A stretch of 64,000 bases of DNA from a virus. The stretch lies in IMG/VR virus record IMGVR_UViG_3300001687_001193, one strand, 5' to 3'. Below, in pieces: positions 2,947-36,467 of the stretch; position 1 is the first letter of the stretch, and the number at the start of each line of letters is the position of its first letter. Under the pieces are notes generated by a model. The model was not told the origin of the DNA and did not search any database. It worked only from the letters and a program-made list of their open reading frames with translations. A program made the translations under genes and the position numbers.

Positions 2947-3858
2947 ATGTCCATTAAAGATCCTGAAAAGCTTATCGGTCTCGTTACGGGGGCCATGAGA
3001 AAACAGGCCAAGGAGGCTCGCACCAACAAGGCAGAGATAGATATCTCTGGTGGCGTAGACAGCGCGGTAGTAGCCGCGCTTGCGTGCCGTGCATTTGGAC
3101 CTGAGAATGTAATCGGAGTATATAGCGACATTAATTCATCTCCAGAATCGCGGCGTAGAGCTAAACTAACTGCGCATACATTTGGTATTTATCTTATAAA
3201 TCTTGATCTCGGGGAAATATATAGTCTTATTGTTCAAGCCGTGAGGAATGAGTTCGACAAACTCGGACTAATATGGCCAAAGGAATCGGAAGATCCAACA
3301 GCCTTCGGTGGTCTCAGGAGTTGTCTTAGGGCACCAATAGGTAGGTTCGTCAACCGTATGTTTGGCGGTGGCATTAGACAAGGCACAGGGAACAGAGACG
3401 AGGACGAGTTGCTCCGGTTCTACCAGAAAGGCGGAGACGGCGAAGTAGACTGCAATTGGATTGGCGGTTTATTTAAGAGCGAAGTTTGGGAACTTGCCGA
3501 ATACCTGGGTGTGCCACAGGAGATAATTGATGCAACGCCGACCCCAGATTTGTGGGGAAGCGGCGACGCGCACAATGATGAGGATGAACTCAGGGAAATA
3601 ACAGGCGTCGAACTCACTTATGGTAGGCCCGGCAAGGAAACGGGGACCATCGAATGGGTAATTAGGGAAAACGATAAGTGTGGCATTATTACAGGCTACA
3701 ACAGCGAAAGGCGAGAAGACATCGAAGGCCTTTATACCCCTGAGCAATGGAAGGTTATCGAAGCCGTACGTAAGATGGAAAAAGCTACAAGGCATAAAGC
3801 TCAATTGCCGCCGATACTACATCGTGAAGCGCTACTAGTTGGAGGAGCAGTAGAATAA
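2947..3858 (+). CDS. nadE: NH3-dependent NAD+ synthetase
   Basis: PP-loop SGGVDS is present as DISGGVDSAVVAAL. The C-terminal block KGGDGEVDCNWIGGLFKSEVWELAEYLGVPQEII...PTPDLW...ELTYG parallels E. coli NadE [21 protein letters not shown]...APTADLEDD...LGVTY. Confidence 0.7.
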   Translation: MSIKDPEKLIGLVTGAMRKQAKEARTNKAEIDISGGVDSAVVAALACRAFGPENVIGVYSDINSSPESRRRAKLTAHTFGIYLINLDLGEIYSLIVQAVRNEFDKLGLIWPKESEDPTAFGGLRSCLRAPIGRFVNRMFGGGIRQGTGNRDEDELLRFYQKGGDGEVDCNWIGGLFKSEVWELAEYLGVPQEIIDATPTPDLWGSGDAHNDEDELREITGVELTYGRPGKETGTIEWVIRENDKCGIITGYNSERREDIEGLYTPEQWKVIEAVRKMEKATRHKAQLPPILHREALLVGGAVE

Positions 3859-3881
3859 GACTGGGACACAGGAGTAGAAAG

Positions 3882-4058
3882 ATGACCGCATTACAAAAAA
3901 TGACGTCCGGCGAGACGGATGAGGACGCAGCTTTCTATGCTGCTATTGAGGCTTTGGAGACAGCGGAACGCGAGTTGCAAGGTGTGATCTCCGCATTGTA
4001 CGCCGCCCTCGGGGCCTCCAGGCGGGCACAAACTGCGGAACGTGGACTGCGACGATGA
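3882..4058 (+). CDS. small hypothetical protein (58 aa, helical)
   Basis: ATG preceded by AGGAG RBS. Not in the supplied ORF track (below 60 aa). Overlaps the next start by 4 nt. Confidence 0.35.
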   Translation: MTALQKMTSGETDEDAAFYAAIEALETAERELQGVISALYAALGASRRAQTAERGLRR

Positions 4059-4939
4059 AGTCGATACTCGACGAATTCGAATACGCTGCTGGTACTGTAA
4101 TAGGAACGTATCATACGCGGACGAACAAGAATAATCAAGACTCTTTTTTCTATTTTGAAGGCGACCATGTACTTGTGGGTGTGGTGTGTGACGGGTGCGG
4201 GAGCGGCGCCCACAGCGAGGTCGGTGCTAGCATCGGAGCGCCTGCTATCGCATGGGAGCTATCCGCCTGTGGGCTTGACAGAGTCGGGAATGAGCCGCAA
4301 AAACTTAAGGAGACGCTAGAGTGGGCTAAACATTTAATGGTAAAGCGTATCTCAAAGTGTGCCTTTAGAGTTGGTTTGCCGTTAGTCGAAGCTGTTAGTG
4401 AGTATTTCTTATTTACCGTGGTGGCAGTAGTCGTGGCCAGAGACTATACCTATGTCATCTCATTCGGAGATGGATTTTATGCTGTTAACCAGAAGCAAGT
4501 CCCGATAGGCCCGTTTGAGAACAATGCTCCACCATATATCGGCTATAATATCATAGCTGGCAAAGTGAATATAATGAGGGAGCATTTAGGCTTCGTTGTG
4601 AACGAAATAATTCCCACTTCCGAGTTGTCGAGCGTGATGATAGCAACGGACGGTATAGATGATTTCCTAGAATCCTCTGAGAAAAAGATCCCAGGAAAGG
4701 AAGAGTTGGTTGGCCCGGTTTCACAATTCTGGGATAAAGATCTATTTTTTAGCAACCCTGCGGCGCTAGAACGCCGTCTGTGTCTGATCAATAGAACAAC
4801 TAGTAGAGTCAACCGCACAACTAGAGCGTTGCAAATAGAGCGTGGATATCTTAAGGATGATACAACTATTTTAGTTATAAGGCGCAAGCAAGATGATAGT
4901 TTACCTGAGAGGGAAGAAACTAAGCCTGAGCCCGTCTAA
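4055..4939 (+). CDS. PP2C-family Ser/Thr protein phosphatase
   Basis: VGVVCDGCGSGAHSEVGA matches the PP2C DGHGG metal-binding motif. The later MIATDGIDD matches PP2C motif 8 (DG..D). Confidence 0.5.
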   Translation: MKSILDEFEYAAGTVIGTYHTRTNKNNQDSFFYFEGDHVLVGVVCDGCGSGAHSEVGASIGAPAIAWELSACGLDRVGNEPQKLKETLEWAKHLMVKRISKCAFRVGLPLVEAVSEYFLFTVVAVVVARDYTYVISFGDGFYAVNQKQVPIGPFENNAPPYIGYNIIAGKVNIMREHLGFVVNEIIPTSELSSVMIATDGIDDFLESSEKKIPGKEELVGPVSQFWDKDLFFSNPAALERRLCLINRTTSRVNRTTRALQIERGYLKDDTTILVIRRKQDDSLPEREETKPEPV

Positions 4940-6749
4940 GTCTATTGGGAAAGGCGGTGAGGCTGACATATTTGACATAGGGAATGGTCAAGTATTGAAA
5001 GTTTTCAAGCAGGCGAGCCATCCGGACTTCGCCGGCTTCAGACTCGAACAGCAAATGGCAGAAGCCAGATTACAAGAGCACCAGAAGAAACTTCCGGCTT
5101 TCCCCAAAGATTTGCCGCAACGCGTTGTTACACCTATCGATTTGGCGACAAACACAAAAGGCAAGACAATCTTGGGTTACTCCATGAAGTTTTTAAAAGG
5201 CTACGAAGTTTTACTAAAGTACGCCGACCGAAACTACAGACGAGCCGGCGTCAGCAACGACCTAGTAGTGAAGACCTTTATGGACCTACACGAGACGGTA
5301 AAGAGTATTCATAATAAAAACGTAGTCATTGGAGATTTCAACGATCTTAACATCATGGTAAAAAACGGGGAAGCATATATAATCGATGCTGACAGTTTTC
5401 AATTTGGCCCGTTTATGTGTAGAGTGTTTACCGAGAAATTTGTGGACCCCATGTTGTGTGATCCGAACGGGCCCAGGCCGATACTCGCCAAACTACATAC
5501 CCCGGATTCAGACTGGTATGCCTTTTCAGTAATGTTAATGCAATCTCTACTATTTGTAGGTCCATACGGTGGCATTTATAGGCCAAGCGATAAAAAGAAA
5601 AGGGTCAATCATGCTGTTAGACCCTTAAAGCGAATCACCGTATTTGATAATGAGGTGAAGTATCCTAAGCCAGCCGTACATTTTAGTGTCCTGCCGGACG
5701 ACTTGCTACAACACTTCCACCGTATATTTAAGGAAGATAGGCGCGGAGAGTTCCCCGACAATCTCTTGAATATTAAGTGGGTTGTTTGCACGAACTGTGG
5801 TATGGTACACGCCAGGAAGACTTGTCCAGGATGCGCCACATATACTCCGACGGCTGTTAAAGAAGTCATTAGAGGAAGGGTTACTTGTACTAGAGTGTTT
5901 CGTACATCTGGAATAATAGTGTTTGCCACAGTGCAAAACAATAGGCTGCGTTATCTATATCACGAAGGTGGAGAGTTTAAAAGAGAGGGCGGAATTCCTG
6001 TTATAAAGGGTAATATTAGACCAACGATGCGTTTTGGAATCCAGAGTAAATCAACATTAGTTGGCGAGAAAGGGTGCCTAGTAGTATTGTCGCCCGGAGC
6101 CACCGAGAAACTGGCAGTCGATAGCGTTGGGTCTCTGCCTTTGTTTGCTGCGAATGACAATAGATATTATTGGGTCACTGATGGCAGGTTGATGCGCAAC
6201 GGGCGCCTTGGGCCAAAACGTATAGGCGACGTTCTGTCTAACCAAACCCTGTTTTGGGTGGGATCACAATTCGGATTCGGTTTTTACCGCGCCGGCAATT
6301 TTAACGTCGGCTTTGTTTTTAATGCTGAGACTGGTGGTATTAACGACTCCGTGAAGCTTCCAGTTATTCCTGGCCAACTTGTTGATGCGACGTGTTACTT
6401 TGCTGGCAATTGGGCTTGGTTCATAGTATCTGTACGCGACAAAGGAAAGACCGTTAACAAATGCATGATCATCAAGTCAGACGGCAGCGTCAACGAATCG
6501 TTTGAGGCACACGATGGCGATGGATCATGGCTAGGATCTGCGAGAGGGAAGTGCGCCGCCGGGCGATTTCTGTTAGCCGCAACGGATGATGGTGTTGTTA
6601 GAGTGGAGCCGGATGGTGGCACGCTGTCTGTAGTTAAGGAATTCCCAGACACCGAGCCGTTTGTGGACTCAGGTTGTCATCTGTTTGCCAGCAACGCCGG
6701 GCTGTTCGTTGTATCTAGGAAAGAAGTTAGATCGCTGAAAATAGTGTGA
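4893..6749 (+). CDS. Ser/Thr protein kinase-like domain fused to a CxxC-CxxC Zn ribbon and a large C-terminal beta-rich domain
   Basis: Gly-loop IGKGGEADIF followed by VLKVFK (Lys). Catalytic-loop-like IHNKNVVIGDFNDLNIMV. DFG-like IIDADSFQF. Then CTNCGMVHARKTCPGC. Confidence 0.5.
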   Translation: MIVYLRGKKLSLSPSKSIGKGGEADIFDIGNGQVLKVFKQASHPDFAGFRLEQQMAEARLQEHQKKLPAFPKDLPQRVVTPIDLATNTKGKTILGYSMKFLKGYEVLLKYADRNYRRAGVSNDLVVKTFMDLHETVKSIHNKNVVIGDFNDLNIMVKNGEAYIIDADSFQFGPFMCRVFTEKFVDPMLCDPNGPRPILAKLHTPDSDWYAFSVMLMQSLLFVGPYGGIYRPSDKKKRVNHAVRPLKRITVFDNEVKYPKPAVHFSVLPDDLLQHFHRIFKEDRRGEFPDNLLNIKWVVCTNCGMVHARKTCPGCATYTPTAVKEVIRGRVTCTRVFRTSGIIVFATVQNNRLRYLYHEGGEFKREGGIPVIKGNIRPTMRFGIQSKSTLVGEKGCLVVLSPGATEKLAVDSVGSLPLFAANDNRYYWVTDGRLMRNGRLGPKRIGDVLSNQTLFWVGSQFGFGFYRAGNFNVGFVFNAETGGINDSVKLPVIPGQLVDATCYFAGNWAWFIVSVRDKGKTVNKCMIIKSDGSVNESFEAHDGDGSWLGSARGKCAAGRFLLAATDDGVVRVEPDGGTLSVVKEFPDTEPFVDSGCHLFASNAGLFVVSRKEVRSLKIV

Positions 6750-6755
6750 GGTAGA

Positions 6756-7016
6756 ATGGAAGAAGAAAAAGCGCCTTCGATATGGTTAAAAGCAAAGATG
6801 GTTGCAAACGACATACTAGATTGTGTGAATAAAATGCCCGAAAAGGGAATCGTAGATAGAGAAGGCAAAGATATGCCGAGGATTATTATCCAGGGCTTGG
6901 CACTTGCACTTTGTAGCTTCGCTAGCGTGGCTGGAATGAAACGGGAGTCACTTATTGAACGTGTAAAGCTAACGTGGCAGGCTGTAGAAAAAGGGCAGCT
7001 GAAGATAATGAACTAA
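6756..7016 (+). CDS. hypothetical protein
   Basis: ORF with a GAGGTAG RBS-like sequence upstream. Confidence 0.3.
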   Translation: MEEEKAPSIWLKAKMVANDILDCVNKMPEKGIVDREGKDMPRIIIQGLALALCSFASVAGMKRESLIERVKLTWQAVEKGQLKIMN

Positions 7017-7315
7017 TAAGGAGACTTATAGTGCACATATTTAGAACTATCGTATTTGTTTTAGGGCTCGTCGTTATGGCGTTTTTCGCCTCGACCGGGT
7101 TGGATGGAGAATTACCGTCTTGGATTGGAGGTGTTGCTTGGGCTATTTTAGGCGTGTACACAACAGTTAGCTTTTATATGCAAGTGCATTATGAAGACAA
7201 TATGAGAATGATGACTAATCTTATCCAAGAACTTTTAAAGTCAGATGGCGTAAGCAAGCTATCTGAAGTCACAGTTGGCCTTAATATTTCCGACGAGGAG
7301 GAGAAAAATGCGTAA
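6974..7315 (+). CDS. membrane protein (two transmembrane helices)
   Basis: Hydrophobic segments IVFVLGLVVMAFFAS and WIGGVAWAILGVYTTVSFY. Confidence 0.35.
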   Translation: MAGCRKRAAEDNELIRRLIVHIFRTIVFVLGLVVMAFFASTGLDGELPSWIGGVAWAILGVYTTVSFYMQVHYEDNMRMMTNLIQELLKSDGVSKLSEVTVGLNISDEEEKNA

Positions 7316-8357
7316 CTATGAATTGCCAATTCCGTCACACTTTGACCGGAGAAATTCCACCAAGATCCTTCAAGTGCCGTACCAGAAGGTGGAGGGCGAA
7401 GCCAAGGCGTGGGCGAATCGGCATGATTTAAAACCGTCAGCTAATGCTAGTGTGCGCATATGCGTGATGCCAATCGACTGCCAGAACACTTTTTGCATCT
7501 CTTCTGGTGAGTTGTATGTGGGTGGGGCGGAAGAGGACACCAACCGATTGTGCGAATTCATTTACAAAAATCTACGTGTCATTGCAGCTATTAATCCAAC
7601 CATGGATACTCATACAGCCATGCAAATCTTCCATCCGGTGTTCTGGGTGGATAGCAATGGAGACAACCCTGAGCCGATGACTATCTTTAGTCTAGAAGAT
7701 GTACAAAAGGGAGTCTGGAGAGTGAATCCAGGAGTGGCTTCGAGCCTAGCCAAGGGCAACTACGTAGCGCTGCAACAGTACGCCCTCCACTACGTAAAGA
7801 CTCTATCCGAGAATGGTAAGTATTCTTTGTGTATTTGGCCGTACCATGCCATGCTTGGTGGCGTGGGGCATGCCCTTGTAGCTTCGTTAGAAGAAGCTAT
7901 ATTTTTCCATAACGTAGCACGCAATTCGCAAACTGGCTTTGAGATCAAGGGCGGCAACCCACTTACCGAGAACTATTCGGTCCTTAGACCAGAAGTTTTG
8001 ACGTATCCTGACGGAAGGCCGGTCGCGCAAAAGAATGTGCGGTTTATCGAAACGCTGTTAGACTACGACGTAGTGGTGATCGCTGGTCAGGCCAAGAGTC
8101 ATTGCGTCGCGTGGACTATTGATGATTTGCTGAACGAAATCAATACCAAGGACCCTGAACTTGCCAAGAAAGTATATCTACTAGAAGATTGTACGTCTCC
8201 GGTTGTGGTACCGGGAATAATCGACTTTACCGATCAGGCTAATGCAGCTTTCCAGAGATTCTCTGATGCCGGAATGCATGTTGTAAAGTCTACAGAACCG
8301 ATGGAGAATTGGCCGGGCATGGATTGGCTCAAGTCGGCTGGGCCAGCTTGGGTGTGA
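7275..8357 (+). CDS. pncA: isochorismatase-family hydrolase, probable nicotinamidase
   Basis: ICVMPIDCQNTFC parallels nicotinamidase VIDMQNDFC. TMDTHTAMQIFHP parallels TQDWHP. DVVVIAGQAKSHCVAWTIDD carries the catalytic Cys of this family. Confidence 0.5.
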   Translation: MALIFPTRRRKMRNYELPIPSHFDRRNSTKILQVPYQKVEGEAKAWANRHDLKPSANASVRICVMPIDCQNTFCISSGELYVGGAEEDTNRLCEFIYKNLRVIAAINPTMDTHTAMQIFHPVFWVDSNGDNPEPMTIFSLEDVQKGVWRVNPGVASSLAKGNYVALQQYALHYVKTLSENGKYSLCIWPYHAMLGGVGHALVASLEEAIFFHNVARNSQTGFEIKGGNPLTENYSVLRPEVLTYPDGRPVAQKNVRFIETLLDYDVVVIAGQAKSHCVAWTIDDLLNEINTKDPELAKKVYLLEDCTSPVVVPGIIDFTDQANAAFQRFSDAGMHVVKSTEPMENWPGMDWLKSAGPAWV

Positions 8358-8361
8358 GGCT

Positions 8362-8949
8362 ATGGGTGTAAGAGTAGCTATATTTGGAGGATCCTTTAGC
8401 CCACCACATTTAGGGCACATGTTTGTATGTCAATATATATTGGCTACTAAGTTAACAGACGAGGTCTGTCTTATGCCCGTATATAGACATGCTTTGGGGA
8501 AGGAGCTACTGCCATACGGCGATAGACTTGATATGTGTCAATCTATTGCATACGAATTTCCAGATAATAGCGTATGGGTGTCCGATATAGAACAGTATAC
8601 TATGGTTGCAGGGGAAAATGGAGGAGTAAATAGGACCTTCGACACATTAAAAGAATGCTTGGACCGGTATACAGAATTAGAACTCTCGTTGGTAGTTGGT
8701 TCAGACATTCTGATGGAAAAAGATCGTTGGTATAAATTCGACGAAATCGAGAAGATGGTTAATGTAATAGTTGTCGGCAGAGATGGATTTCCATGTCCAG
8801 ATGACGATACTATATATATGCCTAATATTACGTCAACAGAAATTCGAGGTAGAATAGCGTCCGGCCTCCCTATAAACCATTTGGTCCATTACAGTGCTTT
8901 AAAGTATATAAACAAACTGAAGAATTTGACCACTACATCTGGTCTATGA
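8362..8949 (+). CDS. nadD: nicotinate/nicotinamide mononucleotide adenylyltransferase
   Basis: GGSFSPPHLGHM matches the (H/T)xGH nucleotidyltransferase motif of NadD (GGTFDPVHYGH). The C-terminal TSTEIRGRIASG parallels ISATIIRERL. Confidence 0.7.
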   Translation: MGVRVAIFGGSFSPPHLGHMFVCQYILATKLTDEVCLMPVYRHALGKELLPYGDRLDMCQSIAYEFPDNSVWVSDIEQYTMVAGENGGVNRTFDTLKECLDRYTELELSLVVGSDILMEKDRWYKFDEIEKMVNVIVVGRDGFPCPDDDTIYMPNITSTEIRGRIASGLPINHLVHYSALKYINKLKNLTTTSGL

Positions 8950-9188
8950 GAGGAAGTATGTGTTACACTATAGTATATTGGGTAAAACTTAGTATTGACG
9001 AATTTGGCGAACAACATGGAGAGATACGCATTACACATTGTGCGACACAAGAAAGTCTCAACAATACTTTAAAGAAACTAGGATATGACGGCATGGGTTG
9101 GATAAGAGTCTTTGCCGGTGAGTTACACGCACTTGATATAGAAACACAATTTGTGCCAAAGGAGAAAAATAATGCAAAGGTTGAATAG
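8946..9188 (+). CDS. hypothetical protein
   Basis: ORF with 4-nt overlap to nadD. Confidence 0.35.
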   Translation: MRGSMCYTIVYWVKLSIDEFGEQHGEIRITHCATQESLNNTLKKLGYDGMGWIRVFAGELHALDIETQFVPKEKNNAKVE

Positions 9189-9327
9189 TAGGATGCGTCA
9201 AAGGAGAAAACCTGGTAGAGGACCTCGGAAGCTGCGCCTTTCTATGAATAAGCCTGGCAGGGGGCCAAGGAAGCGAAGCATTTCTATGGGCAAACCGGGT
9301 AGATCTGGCAGGAAGATAGGAGAATAA
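9172..9327 (+). CDS. small highly basic peptide built from three imperfect repeats KPGRGPRKxRxSM (alternative start 9193)
   Basis: AAGGAG RBS 6 nt before the ATG at 9172. Translation is MQRLNSRMRQRRKPGRGPRKLRLSMNKPGRGPRKRSISMGKPGRSGRKIGE. The underlying DNA has a roughly 42-bp period repeated three times (9209-9327). Absent from the ORF track because it is below 60 aa. Confidence 0.4.
   Translation: MQRLNSRMRQRRKPGRGPRKLRLSMNKPGRGPRKRSISMGKPGRSGRKIGE
9209..9327 (+). repeat. three imperfect tandem repeats of ~42 bp (coding the KPGRGPRK peptide repeats)
   Basis: CCTGGTAGAGGACCTCGGAAGCTGCGCCTTTCTATGAATAAG / CCTGGCAGGGGGCCAAGGAAGCGAAGCATTTCTATGGGCAAA / CCGGGTAGATCTGGCAGGAAGATAGG... Confidence 0.5.
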
Positions 9328-9330
9328 TTA

Positions 9331-9540
9331 ATGGATAAGGATTGCGGCTTTGCACTTATATATATCGACCCAGGTGATAAAAATTTGTCTACAGCACACT
9401 TTGAGTCGAGGGAAAAGCTTTATGACTTTCTTCTTCAGAACGAACTTGAGGTAGATACGTGTATAGTATTGAGGGGCAAGCCAGAGCTTATGACATTGCG
9501 ATACAGTTTTGATCTTGACCCGTCTGATTATAATTATTAA
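9331..9540 (+). CDS. hypothetical acidic protein
   Basis: ATG three bases after the stop of the upstream peptide ORF. Confidence 0.35.
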   Translation: MDKDCGFALIYIDPGDKNLSTAHFESREKLYDFLLQNELEVDTCIVLRGKPELMTLRYSFDLDPSDYNY

Positions 9541-9550
9541 GGATGAAGAT

Positions 9551-9808
9551 ATGCACCAAGCATTTTCCCCTACACGGACATATGTAATAGTAGACTTTGA
9601 TGATCGTGCAATCAGGGTATGTCACACAAGGAAAGAATTTGACGAGGCTTTGCAGGAATTAGCCGATGAACTTGGCGAGGACGCCAAACCAAACCTTGAA
9701 GATAGAACGCTATTTGCATTTATTAGTGGCGAAAAGATTAGAGAAATCGAGCCTACGGTAAAGTATAAGATAACGGTAGAACTTCCGGAGGAAAACAATG
9801 AGCGATAG
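9551..9808 (+). CDS. hypothetical protein
   Basis: In-frame ATG at 9551 with a GGATGAAG RBS-like sequence. The track start at 9509 overlaps the upstream gene. Confidence 0.35.
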   Translation: MHQAFSPTRTYVIVDFDDRAIRVCHTRKEFDEALQELADELGEDAKPNLEDRTLFAFISGEKIREIEPTVKYKITVELPEENNER

Positions 9809-10586
9809 CATCAATATAAATGAATTGTTTGAAGAGGCGCAAGACGAAGGGCTGCTTTCTCCAGACTCAGCGCAGGTACTAACTGTACATGACATCGGAG
9901 CCCAAATCCAAGCAGGTCTTGGTGTTAATGTAGACGATGTGCAAGCCAGCGAGGTAGTGCTCGTTACCATGATGCCTGACGATTCTGGGTCGATACGGTT
10001 CGCTGGAAACGCCCAGGCGATACGCGATGGACATAATCTGGTCATAAATGCACTCAGGGACTCAAAACAAAAGGATAGTATCCTAGTACATACTCGTTAT
10101 CTGAATGGCGACGTGCTATATCCATATTGTTCACTGGATCAAGCCATCGAGATGGACTCGTCTAACTATGACCCAAATCTTGGCACTCCGCTTTACGATC
10201 AGTCGGTGGTGATGCTTGGAACGGTTCTCGCTAAGACCAAGGAGTTTGCCGACAACGGTGTACCCGTACGTACCGTTTCATTGATACTGACTGACGGAAG
10301 CGATCAGCATTCGCATCTCCACAGGCCGAGGGATGTGGAAAAGATCGTGAATGACATGTTGACGTCAGAGAACCACATCGTTGCCGCGATGGGTATCGAA
10401 GATGGTCATACCGATTTCCAGCGCGTCTTTAGGGAGATGGGCCTTAGGGATGAATGGATCCTCACGCCTGGGGATGATGCTAGTAGCATTCGTAGAGCGT
10501 TCCAGGTGTTTAGCCAGTCTGCGGTGCGTGCCAGTCAAGGCGCCGTAAGCTTTAGTAAAACTGCCATGGGCGGTTTTGGGAGTTAA
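9798..10586 (+). CDS. von Willebrand factor A (vWA) domain protein
   Basis: MIDAS motif DxSGS is present as MMPDDSGSI. The downstream LILTDGSDQ fits the vWA TDG motif. Confidence 0.5.
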   Translation: MSDSININELFEEAQDEGLLSPDSAQVLTVHDIGAQIQAGLGVNVDDVQASEVVLVTMMPDDSGSIRFAGNAQAIRDGHNLVINALRDSKQKDSILVHTRYLNGDVLYPYCSLDQAIEMDSSNYDPNLGTPLYDQSVVMLGTVLAKTKEFADNGVPVRTVSLILTDGSDQHSHLHRPRDVEKIVNDMLTSENHIVAAMGIEDGHTDFQRVFREMGLRDEWILTPGDDASSIRRAFQVFSQSAVRASQGAVSFSKTAMGGFGS

Positions 10587-10836: not shown

Positions 10837-11022
10837 GGTAGTTTACCATCGAATATATGGATGGAGAAAATATATTCTCTGTTGGAGAAACGTTGGACGA
10901 GAATGGTGATAAAGCCATCGATGTTGTCGCTAAAGATGTGTCTGGAATACCAAAAGAATACAGGGGTTTCAAAGTTGTTGCTATAGAGGGAGATAGGCCA
11001 GTCGCACTCTAGAAAAACTACG

Positions 11023-28081: not shown

Positions 28082-28082
28082 A

Positions 28083-28870: not shown

Positions 28871-29303
28871 GAATAACAGAATAAATTTCAAACAGATAAA
28901 GCAATTAGTGAAAGCATTAAGAAATCTCGAAGCAATGGGGTATACCCACAAGCCGGTCGACGTAGGTAACAATGCAGAGGCCATAAAATACTGTAATGAC
29001 AACGGAGTTTGTATTAATCTAAGTGCCAATAACTTGGCACACGCCGATGAACTAATGGCTCTTGGGATAGGTCCTGTATCGGTGACATTAGAGAAGGACT
29101 CTCCGCTCAAGGGCGTGACCACTCCCGGTGGTCATAGAGTAGTTGTATGTCCAGCCGTAACGACCAACGGCAAGATTTCTTGTGCTACTTGTGGCGGTCG
29201 CAAGGGTGCTCTTTGCTACCGCATAAATAGAGATTATGTTATAGGCTTTCCGGCGCACGGCAGTTCTGTCAATAAGGCGTCCGAAATAGCCCGTGGAGAA
29301 TAG
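28824..29303 (+). CDS. hypothetical protein
   Basis: ORF overlapping the upstream gene. Confidence 0.35.
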   Translation: MKKRVRLFQAGDLPGKNNRINFKQIKQLVKALRNLEAMGYTHKPVDVGNNAEAIKYCNDNGVCINLSANNLAHADELMALGIGPVSVTLEKDSPLKGVTTPGGHRVVVCPAVTTNGKISCATCGGRKGALCYRINRDYVIGFPAHGSSVNKASEIARGE

Positions 29304-29312
29304 GGAGGAACT

Positions 29313-29648
29313 ATGTCTGACATCAATAGAAGTCAACATACATATGTTATTTTCGCCGAAAGGAAAGATTCGGAATTCGGCCAATTATATCAAATTATGC
29401 GTTGCAAGATTCTCGAAGCACATAGGGATCACTTTCTGGTGGAAAGTTTAAAAAGGTATAACAAGAAATACGCAGGTGCATCTAGAGCAACTAGTGGAAA
29501 ATATAAAGGTATGCCTGTTAGAAGAATCAACAAAGGACAAGCTTTCTGTATTGTTGATGAACAGACGGGGAAGTGTCTTAGTTGGGACACTGTCCGCCGT
29601 AGGGAAGGAACATCTGATGCTCCGGGCAGAGCCCGAGGCGGAAAGTAA
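29313..29648 (+). CDS. hypothetical protein
   Basis: ATG after GGAGG RBS. Confidence 0.35.
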   Translation: MSDINRSQHTYVIFAERKDSEFGQLYQIMRCKILEAHRDHFLVESLKRYNKKYAGASRATSGKYKGMPVRRINKGQAFCIVDEQTGKCLSWDTVRRREGTSDAPGRARGGK

Positions 29649-29718
29649 GAGGTTAAATCAATTTGCTCCAACTCGGTTGTTGGAGTAGGCCAAAGCCTTT
29701 ACCGGTAAGGAGGATAAA

Positions 29719-29901
29719 ATGGCTGAGACTAGAAAGTACCGTTTCAACGATGAGGAGATTGAAGCTTCCATCGACGAGCGTCCAGAAGACGTTCGTGCGG
29801 CATGGGCCGATGTACACCCTGGCCTCGAAAATGCGGACATTTTGACCGCTGAGGATGGTAGCATCGAGTTTCGTACTCGCGCTGGAACGAAGGGCGTCTA
29901 G
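29719..29901 (+). CDS. ThiS/MoaD-like beta-grasp ubiquitin-like protein (candidate Ubl of the downstream E2-JAB-E1 set)
   Basis: Strong TAAGGAGG RBS and strong terminator directly after. Start MAETRKYRFNDEEIEA parallels ThiS MQILFNDQ. C-terminus EDGSIEFRTRAGTKGV parallels ThiS DGDQILLFQVIAGG. Confidence 0.45.
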   Translation: MAETRKYRFNDEEIEASIDERPEDVRAAWADVHPGLENADILTAEDGSIEFRTRAGTKGV

Positions 29902-29920
29902 ATAGAGAGACGCTAGGAAT

Positions 29921-29958
29921 CCCCGCCCAGATTATCTGGGCGGGGAGTTTCTTTTTTG
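29921..29958 (+). terminator. rho-independent terminator
   Basis: CCCCGCCCAG-ATTAT-CTGGGCGGGG followed by AGTTTCTTTTTTGG. Confidence 0.8.
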
Positions 29959-29968
29959 GAGACGGCTT

Positions 29969-30223
29969 ATGAACGTAGAAAAGATGTTCGACCAATTAGT
30001 TCATGTGGATTTCTTCGACGAGAAGTGTCTAGAACTCTTAAATAAAATCATGGAGCTAGATAACCCCATGAAGTTCGACGACGCGTTTGCCTCTGACGAT
30101 GACCTCGACAAGCTAGAAGATGAATTAGAGAGACTCGAGACTAGGGCACCGCAGGCTGTGCGATTCAAGCAAATAGTGCATGGTTTAGCGCCATGTAAGG
30201 TTCCAGATTTACCTTTTATTTGA
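29969..30223 (+). CDS. hypothetical acidic protein
   Basis: ORF following the terminator. Confidence 0.35.
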   Translation: MNVEKMFDQLVHVDFFDEKCLELLNKIMELDNPMKFDDAFASDDDLDKLEDELERLETRAPQAVRFKQIVHGLAPCKVPDLPFI

Positions 30224-30227
30224 GGCA

Positions 30228-31016
30228 TTGTTGATGACTACGGACACAGACCAATTAGCTTTAACGAGCTTTCATTATAGACAAATAGATTTCCTTAGGC
30301 TATTTAAGCTCGCCAGACAACTCGGGGTTATAAAAAGAAAAAGGAAGATGCCTGTCGAGTACAAAGGTGAGGACGAAAAGGCATATACTAATGCCAGAAG
30401 TGCTTGTAGAAGGTTACTTAGAGAAGTGATTAAACACACATTTCCGGGATATGAGTTAAATAGTAACTGGAATCATTATTATGTACATATCCCTGACAAT
30501 ATTAGACGGGCCCTATCTTATCTGCGCCGAAATTATGGCCGGTTAGAGCGCCACAGCGATAGGAATGTGAGAGACGTGATCGCACATTATGGGTTGCTGG
30601 TGGAGCACATAGACAGTCATATATACCCAAGTTTTCCATATCAAATAAACATACATTTGTCCTCGTCACGGCGCGGTAGATATCGCAGAGCGATGAGGAG
30701 GGCTCGTGGCAGGGCAGGAGAAGAGACTCGCCCGTCAGAGAACTTTCACAAGTGTGCCTTGGCTTGTCTTGAATACAAAAAGTTATGGGATAGATATATA
30801 GGCGAAATCGTTGACGTAGCTGAAATACTACAGAAAGAAGATGCAACGCCAAAGCCGGCCAAGAAGAAAAAGGTTGCGGAGGTACCAAATTCAGAGACAG
30901 ATATCCGGGACGCTATAGATAGACACAGAGAAACGAGGGAGGAGAGAGTAAGAAATGCTCAGAACACCTTTGATCAAGCCCTTTCTAGATATAAAGATAG
31001 GAGAGGAATGGGATAA
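30228..31016 (+). CDS. hypothetical basic protein (C-terminus ...DRRGMG)
   Basis: ATGA overlap with the E2-like gene. No recognisable motif. Confidence 0.35.
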   Translation: MLMTTDTDQLALTSFHYRQIDFLRLFKLARQLGVIKRKRKMPVEYKGEDEKAYTNARSACRRLLREVIKHTFPGYELNSNWNHYYVHIPDNIRRALSYLRRNYGRLERHSDRNVRDVIAHYGLLVEHIDSHIYPSFPYQINIHLSSSRRGRYRRAMRRARGRAGEETRPSENFHKCALACLEYKKLWDRYIGEIVDVAEILQKEDATPKPAKKKKVAEVPNSETDIRDAIDRHRETREERVRNAQNTFDQALSRYKDRRGMG

Positions 31017-31705
31017 TGAACGCTGATAAGACTGATTTAGTGGTTAAAATAAAGGCCGGTGCATCCGATGCTCACGTCTCGTTGAACAAAGATGGCATTG
31101 TGCAACACAAGACAGTATCGTTGGAAGACCTGGTGGCGCAGTTGACAGCATCGCAAAAGCTATCGACCGGGGTTTTGCCTAGAAATACTAGGTTTTTCAA
31201 CGGCACGCCTGTTAAGTACCGCATTGGGTTAGAAACGATCGCAAGGACAAGGGACTTCGGTGTTTTCTCGCGCACTAGAGAAGAAGTGGGTGAGGGCAAA
31301 AAGGTATTAAGAATACCGTTCCCACCGTGCCTGTTTGTGTTCGATGTAACATCAGGTCAAATCAGCGCCACGAAAGTATTTGCGCTCAAACATCTCATAT
31401 CTAAGAAAACGGATCATTTATATAATTTTCCGTTTGGGAATGTGTACGGTGAGGGGAGGATATGCTGGGGACAAGCTAAGATGCTACCTATAAGGGCGCC
31501 TATGAACTTGATTAGCATGATTAGTGTATTTTTTGACTCGCCGTTTAATGGCGACTTAGTAAATGAAAGAACTTTTAGATCTCCTCCTGGCGAACGTATA
31601 CCCGACTTTTGGTCGCTTGTAAATTATTTAGATGGCAAGGAAGCGTTCCCAGATAACCTGCTGTATAAATCCGCAGTATCATTGAAAACTCTCATGAAGG
31701 AGTAG
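31016..31705 (+). CDS. ubiquitin-conjugating (E2/UBC)-like protein
   Basis: YNFPFGNVYGEGRICWGQAKM parallels the UBC active-site block HPNVxxxGRICLDIL, with the catalytic Cys in RICWG. Confidence 0.5.
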   Translation: MNADKTDLVVKIKAGASDAHVSLNKDGIVQHKTVSLEDLVAQLTASQKLSTGVLPRNTRFFNGTPVKYRIGLETIARTRDFGVFSRTREEVGEGKKVLRIPFPPCLFVFDVTSGQISATKVFALKHLISKKTDHLYNFPFGNVYGEGRICWGQAKMLPIRAPMNLISMISVFFDSPFNGDLVNERTFRSPPGERIPDFWSLVNYLDGKEAFPDNLLYKSAVSLKTLMKE

Positions 31706-31712
31706 TAGCGAG

Positions 31713-33686
31713 ATGTCTAGCAAGAAAGGCAACAAAACTGGCAAAAGTCACAAAAACAGTAAGAAGGGCCGCAAATCCAACAAGAAGGATGAGGACAAGG
31801 GTCGTGCTAAGGTAGTTAAGAGTAACAAGGTGCCTGAATCCGATGGCGGCAAAAACAAGATAGCTCTCCAAAAAATGCTCGTTGGACATTACATCGAAAA
31901 TATTCCGGCGGATTCCAAGAAAAAAGTTGTATACATTTGGCAAGGAGACGGAGTGTGGGAAGTTAGAAAGCTCAGGTTGGGCACGTTCACTAGCCGCATT
32001 CACGAATTCGATACTATTGGACTCGAAAGTAACCTTAAAGAAGGTTGGGTTTTAAACGTCCCCAAGATTCCTGCGTCTCTGTTAGACGTTACTCTGTCTT
32101 TCTTCAGGAAAATATACGACAAGCATTCCAGCGAGGTTTTCTTACAATTTTTCTATGATGAGAATAAAGAAGAATATCTGGTGCACTGCCCAAAACAGCA
32201 GGTGAGTGGCGCATCTGTGAAGTACGACAGGGACGAGAAGTTTGAAACCCCAGAGAAGATTCTTGTATTTGAGATTCACAGCCATGCAAGTATGCCGGCG
32301 TTCTTTTCTGGCACGGATGATGCCGATGAAAAAGACGACCGATTCTTCGGAGTTATCGGGAAGGTGAAAGAATTTTATCCCGAAATGAAATTGCGTTTGT
32401 CGGTAGGCGGGCGTAGGCGTGAGATAGACATAGGAGATATATTCGATCTAGACGAGAGCAGCTATAACGAGGAGTCTTTCCCAAAAGACTGGGTAAAAAG
32501 GATACAAAAGCAGAAGAAAGAGCCGAAGAGAGTAAGGACATGTAGAAGGGGGCCTCCATATAGGAAATATTATGGTAGGCCGCCAGGTTCAATATATGAT
32601 CCCCGTAGCCGTACACACTTCCCGGTTCCGACAGTTGATGACCCAGACTATCCTGGTGGCGGAGGCTTCCCGCCGCATAGCGCCATTTCTGGTCGTTCAG
32701 GCGGGTGCATTATGGCCGAGTCCACACCGCACCAGACCGAGATGTTTGATAAGGAGCTTAGATCTGTTGAACCGTACAGCGAAGAACACGAGTCTTCGTT
32801 CCCAGTGTGGCCTTATGCAGGCGACGATCCAGAAATGAAAAGACTGGCTGACAGATTAGGCCTACATGATCAGAAGTCTATAGAGAGACTGATGGAAAAT
32901 TTGGGTACCGACAGTGTAGAAGATGTAAATCATTACCTAGATCAAGTTGTCGCGCATCTGGATTCTGAGTCCGATGCTCCAGACGGAGATTACCAGGAGG
33001 AGTTGCTTGCATATCTAGGACTCACAGGTGAAGAAGTGTGGGAGACAACAAATCCAGAAGAAGAAAAGGATGATATAGAGTCTAAGTATGTACAATTGGG
33101 GGACAAATATTTTTACGTGACCAGGGAGTATGGCAGGACGGTTTACAGAGAGTTGAAAGAAGAAGAAGTTCCGGAGGATGATCCTGACCCTGACTGCGAA
33201 CTATGCGATGATTCGGGCTGGTTACGTGAGGGCGTCGTGTTGTGTAGCTGTGAAACCGGTCAATATATAAAAAGACAAAGAGCAGACAAGGAAAAACGTG
33301 AATTTGGCGGCAAGACTTACGCATCCATGCTTATTCATAAGCAGGATCTTACATCAGAACAGATCACCAATTTTGCAAACTCTCTGTCGAAGCTAGAGAC
33401 AGGATGTTCTGGGGTGGTTGGCCATCTAGATTTGCCCAGTGAACGTTGGAATGTTAGAGTATACGACGAGGTCATTACAGCCGATACTTACGACTATAAT
33501 GGGGAGATTGAGGTTTTTCTAGAGAAGCTCTCTATGCCAATGGAGAAAATCGGTATATATATTTGTCCCAACGTCTCAGTAGAAATGAAAGATGAGGCAG
33601 AGGAAGAAAGGGAAGCTGATGGCGAAGAAGACAGCGAAGACCCGAGGGAAGCAATCATCAGGGACTGGCGTGGCGTCAAGTGGTAG
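31713..33686 (+). CDS. JAB/MPN+ (JAMM) metallopeptidase-domain protein with Lys-rich N-terminus and C-terminal Cys-rich extension
   Basis: FEIHSHASMPAFFSGTDD is an exact H-x-H-x7-S-x2-D JAMM motif. The N-terminus is Lys-rich. The C-terminal extension carries CELCDDSGWLREGVVLCSCETG. Confidence 0.65.
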   Translation: MSSKKGNKTGKSHKNSKKGRKSNKKDEDKGRAKVVKSNKVPESDGGKNKIALQKMLVGHYIENIPADSKKKVVYIWQGDGVWEVRKLRLGTFTSRIHEFDTIGLESNLKEGWVLNVPKIPASLLDVTLSFFRKIYDKHSSEVFLQFFYDENKEEYLVHCPKQQVSGASVKYDRDEKFETPEKILVFEIHSHASMPAFFSGTDDADEKDDRFFGVIGKVKEFYPEMKLRLSVGGRRREIDIGDIFDLDESSYNEESFPKDWVKRIQKQKKEPKRVRTCRRGPPYRKYYGRPPGSIYDPRSRTHFPVPTVDDPDYPGGGGFPPHSAISGRSGGCIMAESTPHQTEMFDKELRSVEPYSEEHESSFPVWPYAGDDPEMKRLADRLGLHDQKSIERLMENLGTDSVEDVNHYLDQVVAHLDSESDAPDGDYQEELLAYLGLTGEEVWETTNPEEEKDDIESKYVQLGDKYFYVTREYGRTVYRELKEEEVPEDDPDPDCELCDDSGWLREGVVLCSCETGQYIKRQRADKEKREFGGKTYASMLIHKQDLTSEQITNFANSLSKLETGCSGVVGHLDLPSERWNVRVYDEVITADTYDYNGEIEVFLEKLSMPMEKIGIYICPNVSVEMKDEAEEEREADGEEDSEDPREAIIRDWRGVKW

Positions 33687-34632
33687 TGTCGCTGCTGCTA
33701 CAACCGCCGCACCGGCCAAGAAGTTAGAGCCCGTTATATCATTATCCGGGTATTCTAAAATCGACAACATACTAGTACTTGGATGTGGCGGGACCGGAGG
33801 ACACTTAGTCCCACATCTAGCACGTCTTGTTAGTGTGTTAAACTCGAAGCGGTCGCGCAGCGCATACGCTTCGTTGCCTGTAATGAATCTGTTTTTAGCC
33901 GATGGAGATGTGGTAGAAGAGAAGAATCTAATCAGGCAGAATTTTATAGAGCAGGACATAGGTAAAAACAAGGCTGAGGTGCTGGGAGAAAGATACGCTG
34001 CAGCCTTTGGTATCGAAATTGGCGTTATTCCCGAGTATTTAGAACGCCTCGACAAGTTCTCTTTTCTAAAAACAATGAGTAGAAGTTATGATAACGCGAG
34101 TCTTGTGATAGGCTGCGTCGATAATAATGCCTCTAGAAAAGTAATAAACAGGTGGTTCTGCAGGAAAGACACCGGCGGATCCGACGGTCGTTTTTGGATT
34201 GATTCTGGGAACGAAGAGAACTCGGGTCAAGTCGTGTGCGGATATAATCCGCAAGAATACAGGTACGGTCAGCCGAAATTTAACCCTTTCAGAAAGGATT
34301 TGCATAGTCTATCTTCGGGCCGCCGTCGTGGAGACTTTTGTTTGCCGTGTGCAGTAGAGGTATATCCGGAGTTACTCCATATCGACGATAGCTTTAGCTC
34401 TCAAGAGAGCTGCGCCGCAAGATCACAATCGGCGCCGCAGAATATGCAGACTAATGTTACGGCGGCTGTAATTATTATGAACTTTGTGCAGAAGTTAATT
34501 ACTAGAGACCTAATAAAATCGCACTGTGTAGAGTTTGCCATCAGTAATACATTTAATACTAGGTTAAATACTGTTAAGAATTTGGAGTGTGTAGCTAAGG
34601 GGCGGAGGAAAGACTGGGAGAAGTCACAATGA
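33619..34632 (+). CDS. E1-like ubiquitin-activating enzyme (ThiF/MoeB family); start 33619 (alternative 33592) overlaps the JAB gene 3' end in another frame
   Basis: ILVLGCGGTGGHLVPHLARL is the Rossmann GxGxxG of ThiF/E1. The C-terminal region has CLPC...C Cys residues. A GAGGAAGAAAGGGAAG RBS lies before the 33619 ATG. Confidence 0.6.
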   Translation: MAKKTAKTRGKQSSGTGVASSGSVAAATTAAPAKKLEPVISLSGYSKIDNILVLGCGGTGGHLVPHLARLVSVLNSKRSRSAYASLPVMNLFLADGDVVEEKNLIRQNFIEQDIGKNKAEVLGERYAAAFGIEIGVIPEYLERLDKFSFLKTMSRSYDNASLVIGCVDNNASRKVINRWFCRKDTGGSDGRFWIDSGNEENSGQVVCGYNPQEYRYGQPKFNPFRKDLHSLSSGRRRGDFCLPCAVEVYPELLHIDDSFSSQESCAARSQSAPQNMQTNVTAAVIIMNFVQKLITRDLIKSHCVEFAISNTFNTRLNTVKNLECVAKGRRKDWEKSQ

Positions 34633-35051
34633 TTAGACTGTTGGATATCAGAGATAACGAGAAGCCGCTGGCCACAGACGAGGAGTGTGAGGTTCGTAGA
34701 AGAATCTTGATCGCTACTGGAGTCATTAAGCCAGCATTAAAGTCCGAACTAATAGAGAGAAAAGATGGAACTGTTATTTTGTCTACGCGCAGAGATAGCC
34801 GTGCCAAAAGGGAACGGCTGATCGAGCAGGGCATAATAGATCCAACGTTATATCAGTTGAGTATAGACCCTAGTCCATACACGTCCGGAGGAGAGGGAGA
34901 ATATAATCCTAGATCCATAGAATCAGAGGAAGAATATGACCGGCGTAAGAGGGCATATTTTAGAATAATGCAAGAAATCTTGAAGTCTAGGAAAGATTTA
35001 AAACTGATACTCGGCAAGAAGAGCGACAAAGACCCGGAATGGTATTTCTAA
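34629..35051 (+). CDS. hypothetical protein
   Basis: ATGA overlap with the E1 gene. Confidence 0.35.
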   Translation: MIRLLDIRDNEKPLATDEECEVRRRILIATGVIKPALKSELIERKDGTVILSTRRDSRAKRERLIEQGIIDPTLYQLSIDPSPYTSGGEGEYNPRSIESEEEYDRRKRAYFRIMQEILKSRKDLKLILGKKSDKDPEWYF

Positions 35052-35063
35052 GGAAGGTGCTAT

Positions 35064-36467
35064 ATGCTGCGTGGGGATGGACTTAAAACGGACTTATACC
35101 AATTGACTATGATCGCCGCCAGCTATTTTGTTGGCGGCAGACATAACAATAAGGCTACTTGCGAAGCATTCGCTAGGAAACTGCCAGACTGCAGGAAATT
35201 CTTAGTGATGGCTGGCACAGAGCAAATTAGGGAGTACCTATCCAATTTACGTTTTACCGCTGACGACATTAAGTTTTTGAAGGAACATAAAGAGTTGAAA
35301 TCACTCATGTCTTCTTCTAGCTTCGATAAATATCTAGAAGATTTTAGGTTTTCCGGTGATTTGTGGGCGATGGCAGAGGGCGAAATTGTATTTGCCGGTG
35401 AGCCGTTGGTTAGGGTAACTGGGACACTGCCAGAGATACATATGGCAGAAACCTATGTGCTATCTGTATTGAATCATTCAATCCATGTGGCCTCTAAAGC
35501 GGCGAGGATGGTATTGGCCGCTCGCGGCGTGCCGCTACTTGAGTTCGGCACGAGGAGAACCCATCACGAGGCTGCCTTGGACTCTGCTAGAGCGGCATAT
35601 TTGGCGGGCTTTGCCGCCACGTCCAACTTGAGGGCATCTCAAAAATACGACATACCGAGTGCAGGTACAATGTCACATATGTGGATCATGTTAAGCGAGG
35701 ACGAAGATACAGCTTTCGCGCAGTTTGCTGAGGCGTATCATAATCCTACGCTTTTAATCGACACGTATGACACCATCGAGGGCGCCAAAAAGGCGATTAA
35801 AATTAAAGGGTTGAGCGCTGTAAGGCTCGACTCTGGGGATTTTGAGAGTCTATCTAGGGAAGTCAGAAAAGTACTCGATGACGGTGGCCGTCATACTACG
35901 AAGATCGTGGTATCTGGAGATATGAATGAATATAAGATAGCGGAGCTTATGTGCAGTGACCCGCGTAAAGGCTGTCCTAGTCGGGCTCCTATAGATATGT
36001 TTGGGGTGGGCACCGAGTTGGTAGTGCCAAAAGATATACATTCGTTAGGTATAGTATATAAAGCTGTATATAACGATACAAAGAATGAGCCGGTCATAAA
36101 GTTGGCGTCTGGCAAGGTTACAATGCCGGGGGCTAAGCAGGTATTTTTATCACAAAGAGATGATGGACATTGGGAACACTTAGTAGCACTTGACAATCCA
36201 GAATACTTGGACGACGAGATGAAGGGAATGGTTCCGTTGCTTGACTGTATTATTAGTAAAGGCAAAATATGTGAAGATAACGTCGTCGACTTGGAAGTAT
36301 CCAGAAAGTATTGCAATGCCGCCCTGATAAATATGCCACCGCATTTAGGCACATTGAGCTGTGACTTGGCGGCTCCAGTGCCAGTGCGCCCACATGAAAG
36401 TGTCACTAGATTATTCCAGGAGGCGTTCGAGAGTATTGGAGCAAAACATGGAACTAATATGGGGTAG
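35064..36467 (+). CDS. pncB: nicotinate phosphoribosyltransferase (NaPRTase family)
   Basis: N-terminal LKTDLYQLTM matches the NaPRTase signature. Length of 467 aa fits. Confidence 0.65.
   Translation: MLRGDGLKTDLYQLTMIAASYFVGGRHNNKATCEAFARKLPDCRKFLVMAGTEQIREYLSNLRFTADDIKFLKEHKELKSLMSSSSFDKYLEDFRFSGDLWAMAEGEIVFAGEPLVRVTGTLPEIHMAETYVLSVLNHSIHVASKAARMVLAARGVPLLEFGTRRTHHEAALDSARAAYLAGFAATSNLRASQKYDIPSAGTMSHMWIMLSEDEDTAFAQFAEAYHNPTLLIDTYDTIEGAKKAIKIKGLSAVRLDSGDFESLSREVRKVLDDGGRHTTKIVVSGDMNEYKIAELMCSDPRKGCPSRAPIDMFGVGTELVVPKDIHSLGIVYKAVYNDTKNEPVIKLASGKVTMPGAKQVFLSQRDDGHWEHLVALDNPEYLDDEMKGMVPLLDCIISKGKICEDNVVDLEVSRKYCNAALINMPPHLGTLSCDLAAPVPVRPHESVTRLFQEAFESIGAKHGTNMG

Follow-up and report, generated by a model that had tools for sequence, protein, structure and literature searches.

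The window analysed here is a 64-kb stretch (64,000 nucleotides) of IMG/VR virus record IMGVR_UViG_3300001687_001193, taken from the genome of a huge phage of ~461 kb, and it encodes four enzymes predicted to lead from nicotinamide to NAD+: a large nicotinamidase, a nicotinate phosphoribosyltransferase (NaPRT), NadD and NadE (Table 1). An initial annotation of this DNA had described the four open reading frames (ORFs) as a Preiss-Handler set dispersed through the window. All four were found where it had placed them, intact and on the + strand. "Dispersed" is apt for NaPRT, which lies ~26 kb downstream, but not for NadE, the nicotinamidase and NadD, which sit inside a tight 6-kb array. In this array the genes for NadE, a PP2C-type phosphatase, a Ser/Thr kinase, the nicotinamidase, NadD and a predicted von Willebrand factor A (vWA) protein are co-directional and follow one another with overlaps or small gaps. 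The initial annotation had missed this context. The nicotinamidase is not free-standing; it is part of a conserved cassette, in which it stands third in the order PP2C phosphatase, Ser/Thr kinase with a Zn-ribbon, large nicotinamidase and vWA protein. In sum, each of the four steps has an intact gene of the fitting enzyme class, three of these genes share one array, and related phages conserve the layout.

Table 1. Features of the window and of the fetched comparison loci (aa, amino acids; L numbers are fetched loci)
Feature	Coordinates or loci	Strand	Basis
NadE, NH3-dependent NAD+ synthetase-type, 303 aa	2947..3858	+	PF02540, TIGR00552, SGGVDS, PDB
PP2C-type phosphatase, 294 aa, first cassette gene	4055..4939	+	PF13672
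Ser/Thr-kinase-like protein, 618 aa	4893..6749	+	kinase domain, Zn-ribbon, C-terminal domain
Predicted large nicotinamidase (PncA/Pnc1-type), 349 aa	7308..8357	+	family profile, AlphaFold model, conserved triad and metal site
NadD-type nicotinate/nicotinamide mononucleotide adenylyltransferase, 195 aa	8362..8949	+	PF01467, motifs, PDB
vWA-like protein, 262 aa, last cassette gene	9798..10586	+	MIDAS motif
Prok-E2_D	31016-31705		
JAB-domain protein, 657 aa	31713-33686		
ThiF/E1 protein	ends 34632		best match PRTRC ThiF family
NaPRT/PncB (TIGR01513 type), 467 aa	35064..36467	+	TIGR01513, NF009131, PF17767, PF04095
HNH-repeat and DHH/DHHA1 phosphoesterase	48111-49961		
APS kinase	50419-50961		
Adenylosuccinate synthetase purA	51027-52301		
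Tandem candidate NrtR operators	L002, L003, L013, L017, L023, L031, L034, L036, L038, L039, L042		
ADP-ribosylglycohydrolase insertion	L015, L023, L031, L033, L034, L036, L038, L039, L002		

For the nicotinamidase gene the start was assigned to the ATG at 7308, which has the Shine-Dalgarno sequence GAGGAGGAG ahead of it, and not to the TTG at 7275 given by the initial annotation. An independent gene call on an identical sequence agrees with this start and the 349-aa product, and residue numbers below count from its Met. The ORF alone gave no match in Pfam, NCBIfam (E≤0.01), PHROGs, PADLOC or a single-sequence PDB search. As there was no library match for it, the earlier PncA-like assignment had been drawn from motifs only, and the PF00857 match that it had named as a check was not found. 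Matches to HrpA and AEBP2 in single-sequence searches were spurious. Nor did profile A1, limited to close homologues (≥64% identity), find any PDB nicotinamidase; diversity was needed for detection, and with profile A2, built from 78 diverse family members, the top five PDB matches were all nicotinamidases (E 4e-9 to 9e-5). These were yeast Pnc1 (2h0r, E=4e-9) and the A. baumannii enzyme (2wt9, 2e-8), followed by 29iv, M. tuberculosis PncA (3pl1) and the P. horikoshii enzyme (1ilw). In this alignment the catalytic triad D57, K214 and C266 pairs with D8, K122 and C167 of yeast Pnc1, and the metal ligands D100, H102 and H180 (motifs MDTH and WPYH) pair with D51, H53 and H94. Across the 78 members, conservation is 90% or more for the triad residues, D100 and H102, and H180 is invariant.

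A structure model gave the same answer. AlphaFold with the 78-member alignment reached a predicted local distance difference test score (pLDDT) of 96.8, compared with 34.6 for the single sequence, which was not usable. When the model was searched against the PDB with Foldseek, ranks 1-20 were all nicotinamidases (E 6e-12 to 1e-6), with a target template modelling score (TM-score) of 0.68-0.82 for 19 of the 20 and of 0.50 for a larger Drosophila enzyme. The canonical nicotinamidases of yeast, A. baumannii and M. tuberculosis share the core fold, triad and metal site with the phage protein. They are 180-235 aa long, whereas the phage protein is ~350 aa, and the identity is 13-19%. Because of this difference in length, ~40% of the model falls beyond the common core, and the query TM-score is 0.4-0.5. 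Together, the profile, residues and model place the 7308-8357 product among the predicted nicotinamidases with triad and metal site, in a subfamily outside Pfam assignment. The part of the initial call that named a nicotinamidase therefore stood, on the family profile and the model. The Asp/His/His metal site sets nicotinamidases apart from other isochorismatase-like hydrolases, and its conservation, with nicotinamidases ranking first in the searches, led us to reject a generic hydrolase of that fold. In solved nicotinamidase complexes the metal holds the free pyridine nitrogen, which makes an NMN (nicotinamide mononucleotide) or NAD deamidase unlikely; of these three compounds, nicotinamide is the substrate that the metal site favours.

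The family to which this enzyme belongs is large. More than 8,000 90%-identity clusters were matched, and an exhaustive search gave 2,376 50%-identity clusters (E≤0.001); members carry only the source labels "isochorismatase" or "nicotinamidase-related amidase". Two distant members reach PF00857 (26 and 43 bits), the curated model missed by the phage enzyme. We found no member of the large subfamily among solved structures and none described in the literature searched. In some contigs, phage-like ones among them (P0014, P0121, P0127, P0130 and others; L006, L007), the large nicotinamidase forms the C-terminal half of 580-615-aa proteins, whose N-terminal ~240 aa have no Pfam match.

The other three enzymes were assigned with the help of curated models, in agreement with the initial annotation. 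NadE matches PF02540 (93 bits) and TIGR00552 (85 bits, cutoff 63.65) and carries the PP-loop SGGVDS in a single domain, without a glutaminase (CN-hydrolase) domain. Its PDB matches are NH3-dependent enzymes, the best being the NH3-dependent NAD synthetase 2e18 (E=1.6e-18). NadD matches PF01467 (48 bits) and contains the nucleotidyltransferase motifs PPHLGH and ITSTEIR; its top NCBIfam matches are all nicotinate mononucleotide (NaMN)/NMN adenylyltransferases (E 1e-26 to 1e-12). All but one of its 18 PDB matches, the exception being an uncharacterised protein, are nicotinate/nicotinamide nucleotide adenylyltransferases, including the NaMN adenylyltransferases 8aih, 1kam and 2h29 (E 1e-18 to 1e-16). 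NaPRT is clearly of the nicotinate type (E=1e-123) and not NadV. It scores 388.6 bits with TIGR01513 (cutoff 297.4) and 388.7 bits with NF009131 (cutoff 330), and matches both NAPRTase_N (PF17767, 97 bits) and NAPRTase (PF04095, 41 bits). The initial annotation had itself named two outcomes that would undo it, an unrelated hydrolase at the first step or pseudogenes lacking catalytic residues; neither describes these genes, because all four are intact with their catalytic residues. Host-derived pseudogenes are ruled out, as the ORFs are both intact and conserved.

As to the partners of the nicotinamidase in the cassette, the phosphatase is a clear PP2C_2 protein (PF13672, 59 bits, cutoff 24), with the motifs NNQD, CDGC..SEVGA, GDG, TDG..D and DDTT conserved in 24 homologues. 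The kinase consists of a kinase domain, a CxxC..CxxC Zn-ribbon (C299/302/311/314) and an uncharacterised ~300-aa C-terminal domain. Its sequence gave no PDB match, and its Pkinase match is weak and under the cutoff (E=3e-4, 20.7 bits). A homologue from huge phage LR756500 reaches 31.1 bits with Pkinase (cutoff 31.7) and 22.7 bits with RIO1, above the cutoff of 22. The elements GkGGEA, K36, iGDFNdlN and IDaDSfQf are conserved, and the four Cys occur in 24 of 27 sequences. The vWA protein has a complete metal ion-dependent adhesion site (MIDAS) motif, with DDSGS, GTPLYD and TDG.D invariant in 24 homologues, two of which are named VWFA/vWA domain protein in UniRef. It gave no Pfam or PDB match, either alone or as a family profile; distant phage homologues match PF00092 VWA (E~1e-3) and VWA_CoxE (E=0.019), all under cutoff.

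The cassette was found in phage-like relatives (L001, L006/7, L009, L010/11 and L102), and at 60-90% identity at least six phage-like contigs preserve the arrangement. NadE lies upstream of the cassette in five of these (L001, L006/7, L009, L102) and NadD is present in two. Relative contig ERR7850084_14948 (91,754 bp) also carries NaPRT, with the cassette ~23 kb upstream of it; the four-enzyme complement has therefore been maintained in the lineage. Among the 80 closest genome loci, ~27 cellular ones, mostly of filamentous cyanobacteria, have the same four cassette genes in the same order, and linkage to the kinase/phosphatase/vWA triad is obligate in the closest nicotinamidase subclade. Identity between the window and cyanobacterial cassettes is 35-37% for PP2C, 46-57% for the kinase and 64-69% for the nicotinamidase and vWA protein; one of the comparisons gave 49-54% for the kinase and 67-69% for the vWA protein. 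More distant versions were seen in huge phages: LR756500 has contiguous PncA-like, vWA, PP2C and kinase genes with NadE 3 kb upstream, and LR745208 and LR756511 have PncA-like, vWA and kinase genes within ~5.6 kb and ~11.6 kb, respectively. The cassette proteins of these three genomes are 23-38% identical to those of the window. Nine cyanobacterial cassette loci contain one or two ADP-ribosylglycohydrolase (DraG-like) genes between PP2C and kinase, an insertion that is absent from the phage versions, and one cyanobacterial copy adjoins GmrSD and an AAA_15/AAA_21 ATPase. Close nicotinamidase homologues were also seen in four metagenome-assembled genome (MAG) loci labelled as candidate phyla radiation (CPR) bacteria or archaea (Andersenbacteria, Woesearchaeota, Gracilibacteria, Saccharibacteria). 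Two of them (L024, L025) have the full cassette, L045 the nicotinamidase and vWA genes only, and L043 has no cassette gene but the nicotinamidase; phage contigs that were binned wrongly may account for these cases.

A link to NAD metabolism in cells was seen at the 5′ end of the cyanobacterial cassettes. A homologue of NrtR lies near the nicotinamidase region in 15 fetched loci, namely 13 cassette-bearing genome loci, L042, in which PP2C and nicotinamidase were the only cassette genes detected, and Bacillus phage G (L008). In 11 of the 12 NrtR-PP2C intergenic regions examined there are two tandem palindromes, ATAGTGT-N7-ACACTAT, spaced ~23-28 bp. This predicted operator fits the published form of NrtR operators, a 21-bp palindrome with a GT-N7-AC core, and in 1.13 Mb of fetched loci all but one of the sites with at most one mismatch fall either at the 5′ end of a cassette or just ahead of the nicotinamidase gene. 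NrtR has been described as an ADP-ribose-responsive repressor of NAD genes, with cyanobacterial regulons of the type pncB-nadD-nrtR-nadE. The adjacency of NrtR and the predicted operators thus tie the cassette to NAD/ADP-ribose homeostasis, and its predicted co-regulation with NAD genes fits a role in nicotinamide recycling. The NUDIX protein of phage G, gp273, which stands without a cassette, shows 36% identity to cyanobacterial NrtR along its entire length.

In its three other components the cassette resembles the TerY-P triad, described as vWA, PP2C and a Ser/Thr kinase with a Zn-ribbon (PMC11090510): it has a PP2C phosphatase and a kinase whose kinase domain is followed directly by a Zn-ribbon, together with the vWA-like protein. 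Unlike TerY-P, the phage kinase has the extra ~300-aa C-terminal domain, and in place of the nuclease and restriction partners described in PMC11090510 the cassette has a metabolic amidase, with predicted NrtR control in cyanobacteria. The PADLOC TerY-P models did not match PP2C or the vWA protein, and the kinase gave only weak matches to PD-T4-6 and MkoA. In the literature searched, neither a connection between a nicotinamidase and a TerY-P-like triad nor one between such a cassette and an NrtR regulon was found.

We consider it fairly probable that the huge phage encodes a complete nicotinamide-to-NAD+ route, with the triad linked to its first step. The metal-dependent nicotinamidase would convert nicotinamide to nicotinate and NH3, NaPRT would join nicotinate and host phosphoribosyl pyrophosphate (PRPP) to give NaMN, NadD would adenylate NaMN to nicotinate adenine dinucleotide (NaAD), and the NH3-dependent NadE would amidate NaAD to NAD+. 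As the initial annotation had proposed, this predicted enzymology is complete on paper. In infection the route may keep or rebuild the NAD+ pool and recycle nicotinamide freed by NAD+-cleaving host enzymes (NADases), and the PP2C/kinase/vWA triad may gate or localise the nicotinamidase, such that nicotinamide would enter the Preiss-Handler route under some signal. The route may serve to counter host defence or, more generally, to sustain a very large replication programme. In a broader version of this reading, which we hold only tentatively and think somewhat doubtful, nicotinamidase and triad would form an undescribed phospho-switch entry gate, NrtR/ADP-ribose-controlled in filamentous cyanobacteria and long kept in huge phages. 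With NadE, NadD and NaPRT it would then constitute a fourth, regulated and deamidating NAD+ reconstitution pathway, switched on when host NADases release nicotinamide.

Several observations weigh against the proposed route. NaPRT lies 26 kb away within an unrelated E2-JAB-E1 neighbourhood, and its nearest cellular relatives, from Myxococcota and Deltaproteobacteria MAGs, are 45-47% identical, compared with 66-69% for the cassette and cyanobacterial genes; as the nearest relatives differ, the four genes were not acquired as one unit. NadD falls under every curated equivalog cutoff (best TIGR00482, 91.8 vs 112.45 bits), so that it may prefer either NaMN or NMN. The second-best PDB match of NadE is the Francisella enzyme 3fiu, and the support for the vWA assignment consists of motifs, source names of homologues and hidden Markov model matches under threshold. 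Among the ~70 window ORFs scanned there was neither a PRPP synthetase nor an NAD+-consuming enzyme, and an NrtR-like operator was absent from the window, where the motif occurs at chance level. Nothing ties the gene set to any specific defence system, gating of the nicotinamidase is a role that we purely infer for the triad, and no capsid, tail, terminase or other phage structural gene is present in the 64-kb window. Scans for promoters and terminators around the cassette and NaPRT loci gave results at chance level only.

NAD+ gene sets in large phages are already on record. The initial annotation had regarded a complete Preiss-Handler route as a solution distinct from those described for phages, a claim that had to be given up. 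The cultured megaphage Bacillus phage G has the same four Preiss-Handler enzyme classes, also co-directional: gp275 (isochorismatase/PncA-like), gp277 (NaPRT), gp281 (NaMN adenylyltransferase) and gp283 (NAD synthetase), with gp273 (NUDIX) alongside, and its authors mention possible NAD+ recycling. Its NAD genes all lie within ~6 kb, whereas the NaPRT of the window is 26 kb off. The NaPRTs are 37% identical over 80% of the query, NadD and NadE only ~25%, and the PncA of phage G (gp275) is a canonical 180-aa protein matching PF00857 at 80 bits, unlike the 349-aa enzyme of the window, which has no PF00857 match. In the fetched 13-kb region of phage G there was no match to the window PP2C, kinase or vWA protein, and none is annotated there. 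A bioinformatic report (PMC11662467, Microbiome 2024) counts 174 of 668 jumbo phages with a complete gene set for NAD+ synthesis by salvage or the Preiss-Handler route, often with clustered pncB-nadD-nadE, and a phage pncA is mentioned; support of NAD+-consuming phage enzymes and counter-defence are the roles suggested there. In that report the Preiss-Handler route is defined by pncB, nadD and nadE, to which the window set adds the nicotinamidase. Term searches of its main text gave no account of a large nicotinamidase subfamily; a kinase, phosphatase or vWA protein was not looked for there.

Three phage NAD+ pathways have been validated: NARP1 (Adps and Namat), NARP2 (Nampt and Nmnat) and NARP3 (PnuC and NadR). 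They serve the purpose that is also proposed for the route here, the rebuilding of NAD+ cleaved by defence NADases, from cleavage products or precursors. They differ from it in having two steps, no deamidated intermediates and experimental validation, whereas the window route has four predicted steps. None of these enzyme pairs was found among the ~70 window ORFs with Pfam, NCBIfam or PHROGs, a scan that did not extend to the other ~400 kb of the genome; membership in NARP1-3 is ruled out, as the enzymes differ. The literature searched contains no test of a phage nicotinamidase or of a phage Preiss-Handler route. The NAD+ salvage set itself is not new; what appears to be new is the apparently regulated cassette with the large nicotinamidase, found in cyanobacteria and huge phages alike.

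The same genes could be read differently. The cassette might be a self-contained signalling or conflict module that removes nicotinamide or a similar amide, with NadE, NadD and NaPRT as ordinary auxiliary metabolic genes nearby; removal of nicotinamide could relieve product inhibition of, or base-exchange on, sirtuins, ADP-ribosyltransferases and NADases. The cyanobacterial cassettes lack NadD, NadE and NaPRT in the fetched 9-kb flanks and often include ADP-ribosylglycohydrolase genes, TerY-P-type triads are described as switches on conflict systems and as stand-alone defences (PMC11090510), and both the copy beside GmrSD and the differing nearest relatives of cassette and NaPRT are in keeping with such a module. 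Against this, phage NadE and NadD are repeatedly interleaved with the cassette at differing identity levels, NaPRT stands on the same relative contig as the cassette, and PADLOC gave neither a TerY-P nor another defence match for PP2C, the vWA protein or the nicotinamidase. Cyanobacterial NrtR regulons are moreover described as including pncB-nadD-nadE, which would give the nicotinate from the cassette a co-regulated outlet, and we regard the separate module as unlikely. Still less probable, in our view, is a different order of the late steps, in which NadE, working as an NMN synthetase, would make NMN from NaMN, and NMN would then be adenylated by the NadD-like enzyme, NaAD being no intermediate. 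The sub-cutoff NadD scores allow for this, given that TIGR00482 spans both nicotinate and nicotinamide nucleotide adenylyltransferases, and so does the match to 3fiu, a Francisella NadE-family enzyme with NMN synthetase activity. The best PDB matches, on the other hand, are the classical 2e18 for NadE and the NaMN-preferring NadD enzymes 1kam, 2h29 and 8aih.

It could also be asked whether the genes were captured recently from a host and have no function, or whether the contig comes from a cellular or episymbiont genome instead of a phage. The 66-69% identity of cassette proteins to cyanobacterial ones, the missing capsid, tail and terminase genes, the cell-like S21, IF3, Lon, GroEL and purA, and the several close homologues in MAGs labelled CPR bacteria or Woesearchaeota could all be cited in favour. 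We nevertheless find this barely credible. The ORFs are intact with all catalytic residues kept, the layout recurs across the phage-like contigs at 60-90% identity, and in a rough neighbour-joining tree the phage nicotinamidases form their own clade beside, not inside, the cyanobacterial one; as this tree has no support values, it does not fix the direction of transfer between phage and cyanobacterium. The window genes form a single-strand array, mostly of short ORFs with uniform positive GC skew, together with four tRNAs (tRNA-Tyr, tRNA-Ile and two tRNA-Pro(TGG)) and phage-type genes for an RnlA-like RNA ligase, RlaP and homing nucleases of the HNH and GIY-YIG types. A repertoire of S21, IF3, peptide deformylase, Lon, a GroEL-like protein, purA, APS kinase, a major-vault-protein-like protein, RnlA-like, RlaP and nucleases is what huge phages typically carry. 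A 460,921-bp metagenomic contig encodes proteins identical to the window vWA protein and NaPRT. Relatives are IMG/VR contigs of 244 and 318 kb, classed as viral, and the remoter homologous cassettes lie in deposited huge-phage genomes of 462-595 kb; a megablast search of the 6.3-kb core against GenBank phages gave no match. The phage origin of the window has good support, although the window by itself does not prove it, because it holds no structural gene.

With respect to the remainder of the window, a ubiquitin-like conjugation block (31016-35051) of Prok-E2_D, JAB, ThiF and a conserved 140-aa ORF stands directly 5′ of NaPRT, and S21 follows NaPRT. In ERR7850084_14948 NaPRT likewise lies between E2-JAB-ThiF-140aa and S21, and in relative L100 the block has this order, with a Prok_Ub-like gene further upstream. 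A functional link between NaPRT and the E2-JAB-E1 genes was considered and set aside; the order is kept in one relative, but there is no rationale for such a link. Translation genes (S21, IF3, peptide deformylase and tRNAs) lie at 36755-37051, 46364-47400 and 60666-62601. The regions 22640-27514 and 43702-45318 encode the RnlA-like RNA ligase (phrog_562), an AAA ATPase, a full-length Lon protease and a GroEL/Cpn60-like chaperonin. In an 824-aa protein without a PHROG match (17274-19748), a major-vault-protein shoulder domain (71.8 bits) was recognised together with a Vault_3 repeat, which makes it a vault-like protein encoded by a phage. The metabolic and nucleotide group at 48111-54159 includes, besides the genes listed in Table 1, a GIY-YIG protein and a radical-SAM/SPASM protein with a strong match to phrog_7293.

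NAD+ depletion is among the commonest abortive-infection strategies. If the four-enzyme route works in infected cells, it would be the fourth phage pathway for rebuilding NAD+ and the first deamidating one, and it would explain why so many giant phages carry NAD genes. A large enzyme family that Pfam leaves unassigned gains a testable function. The pairing of the nicotinamidase and the kinase, phosphatase and vWA genes, seen both in cyanobacterial NrtR regulons and in huge phages, hints at an unrecognised post-translational control of nicotinamide recycling.

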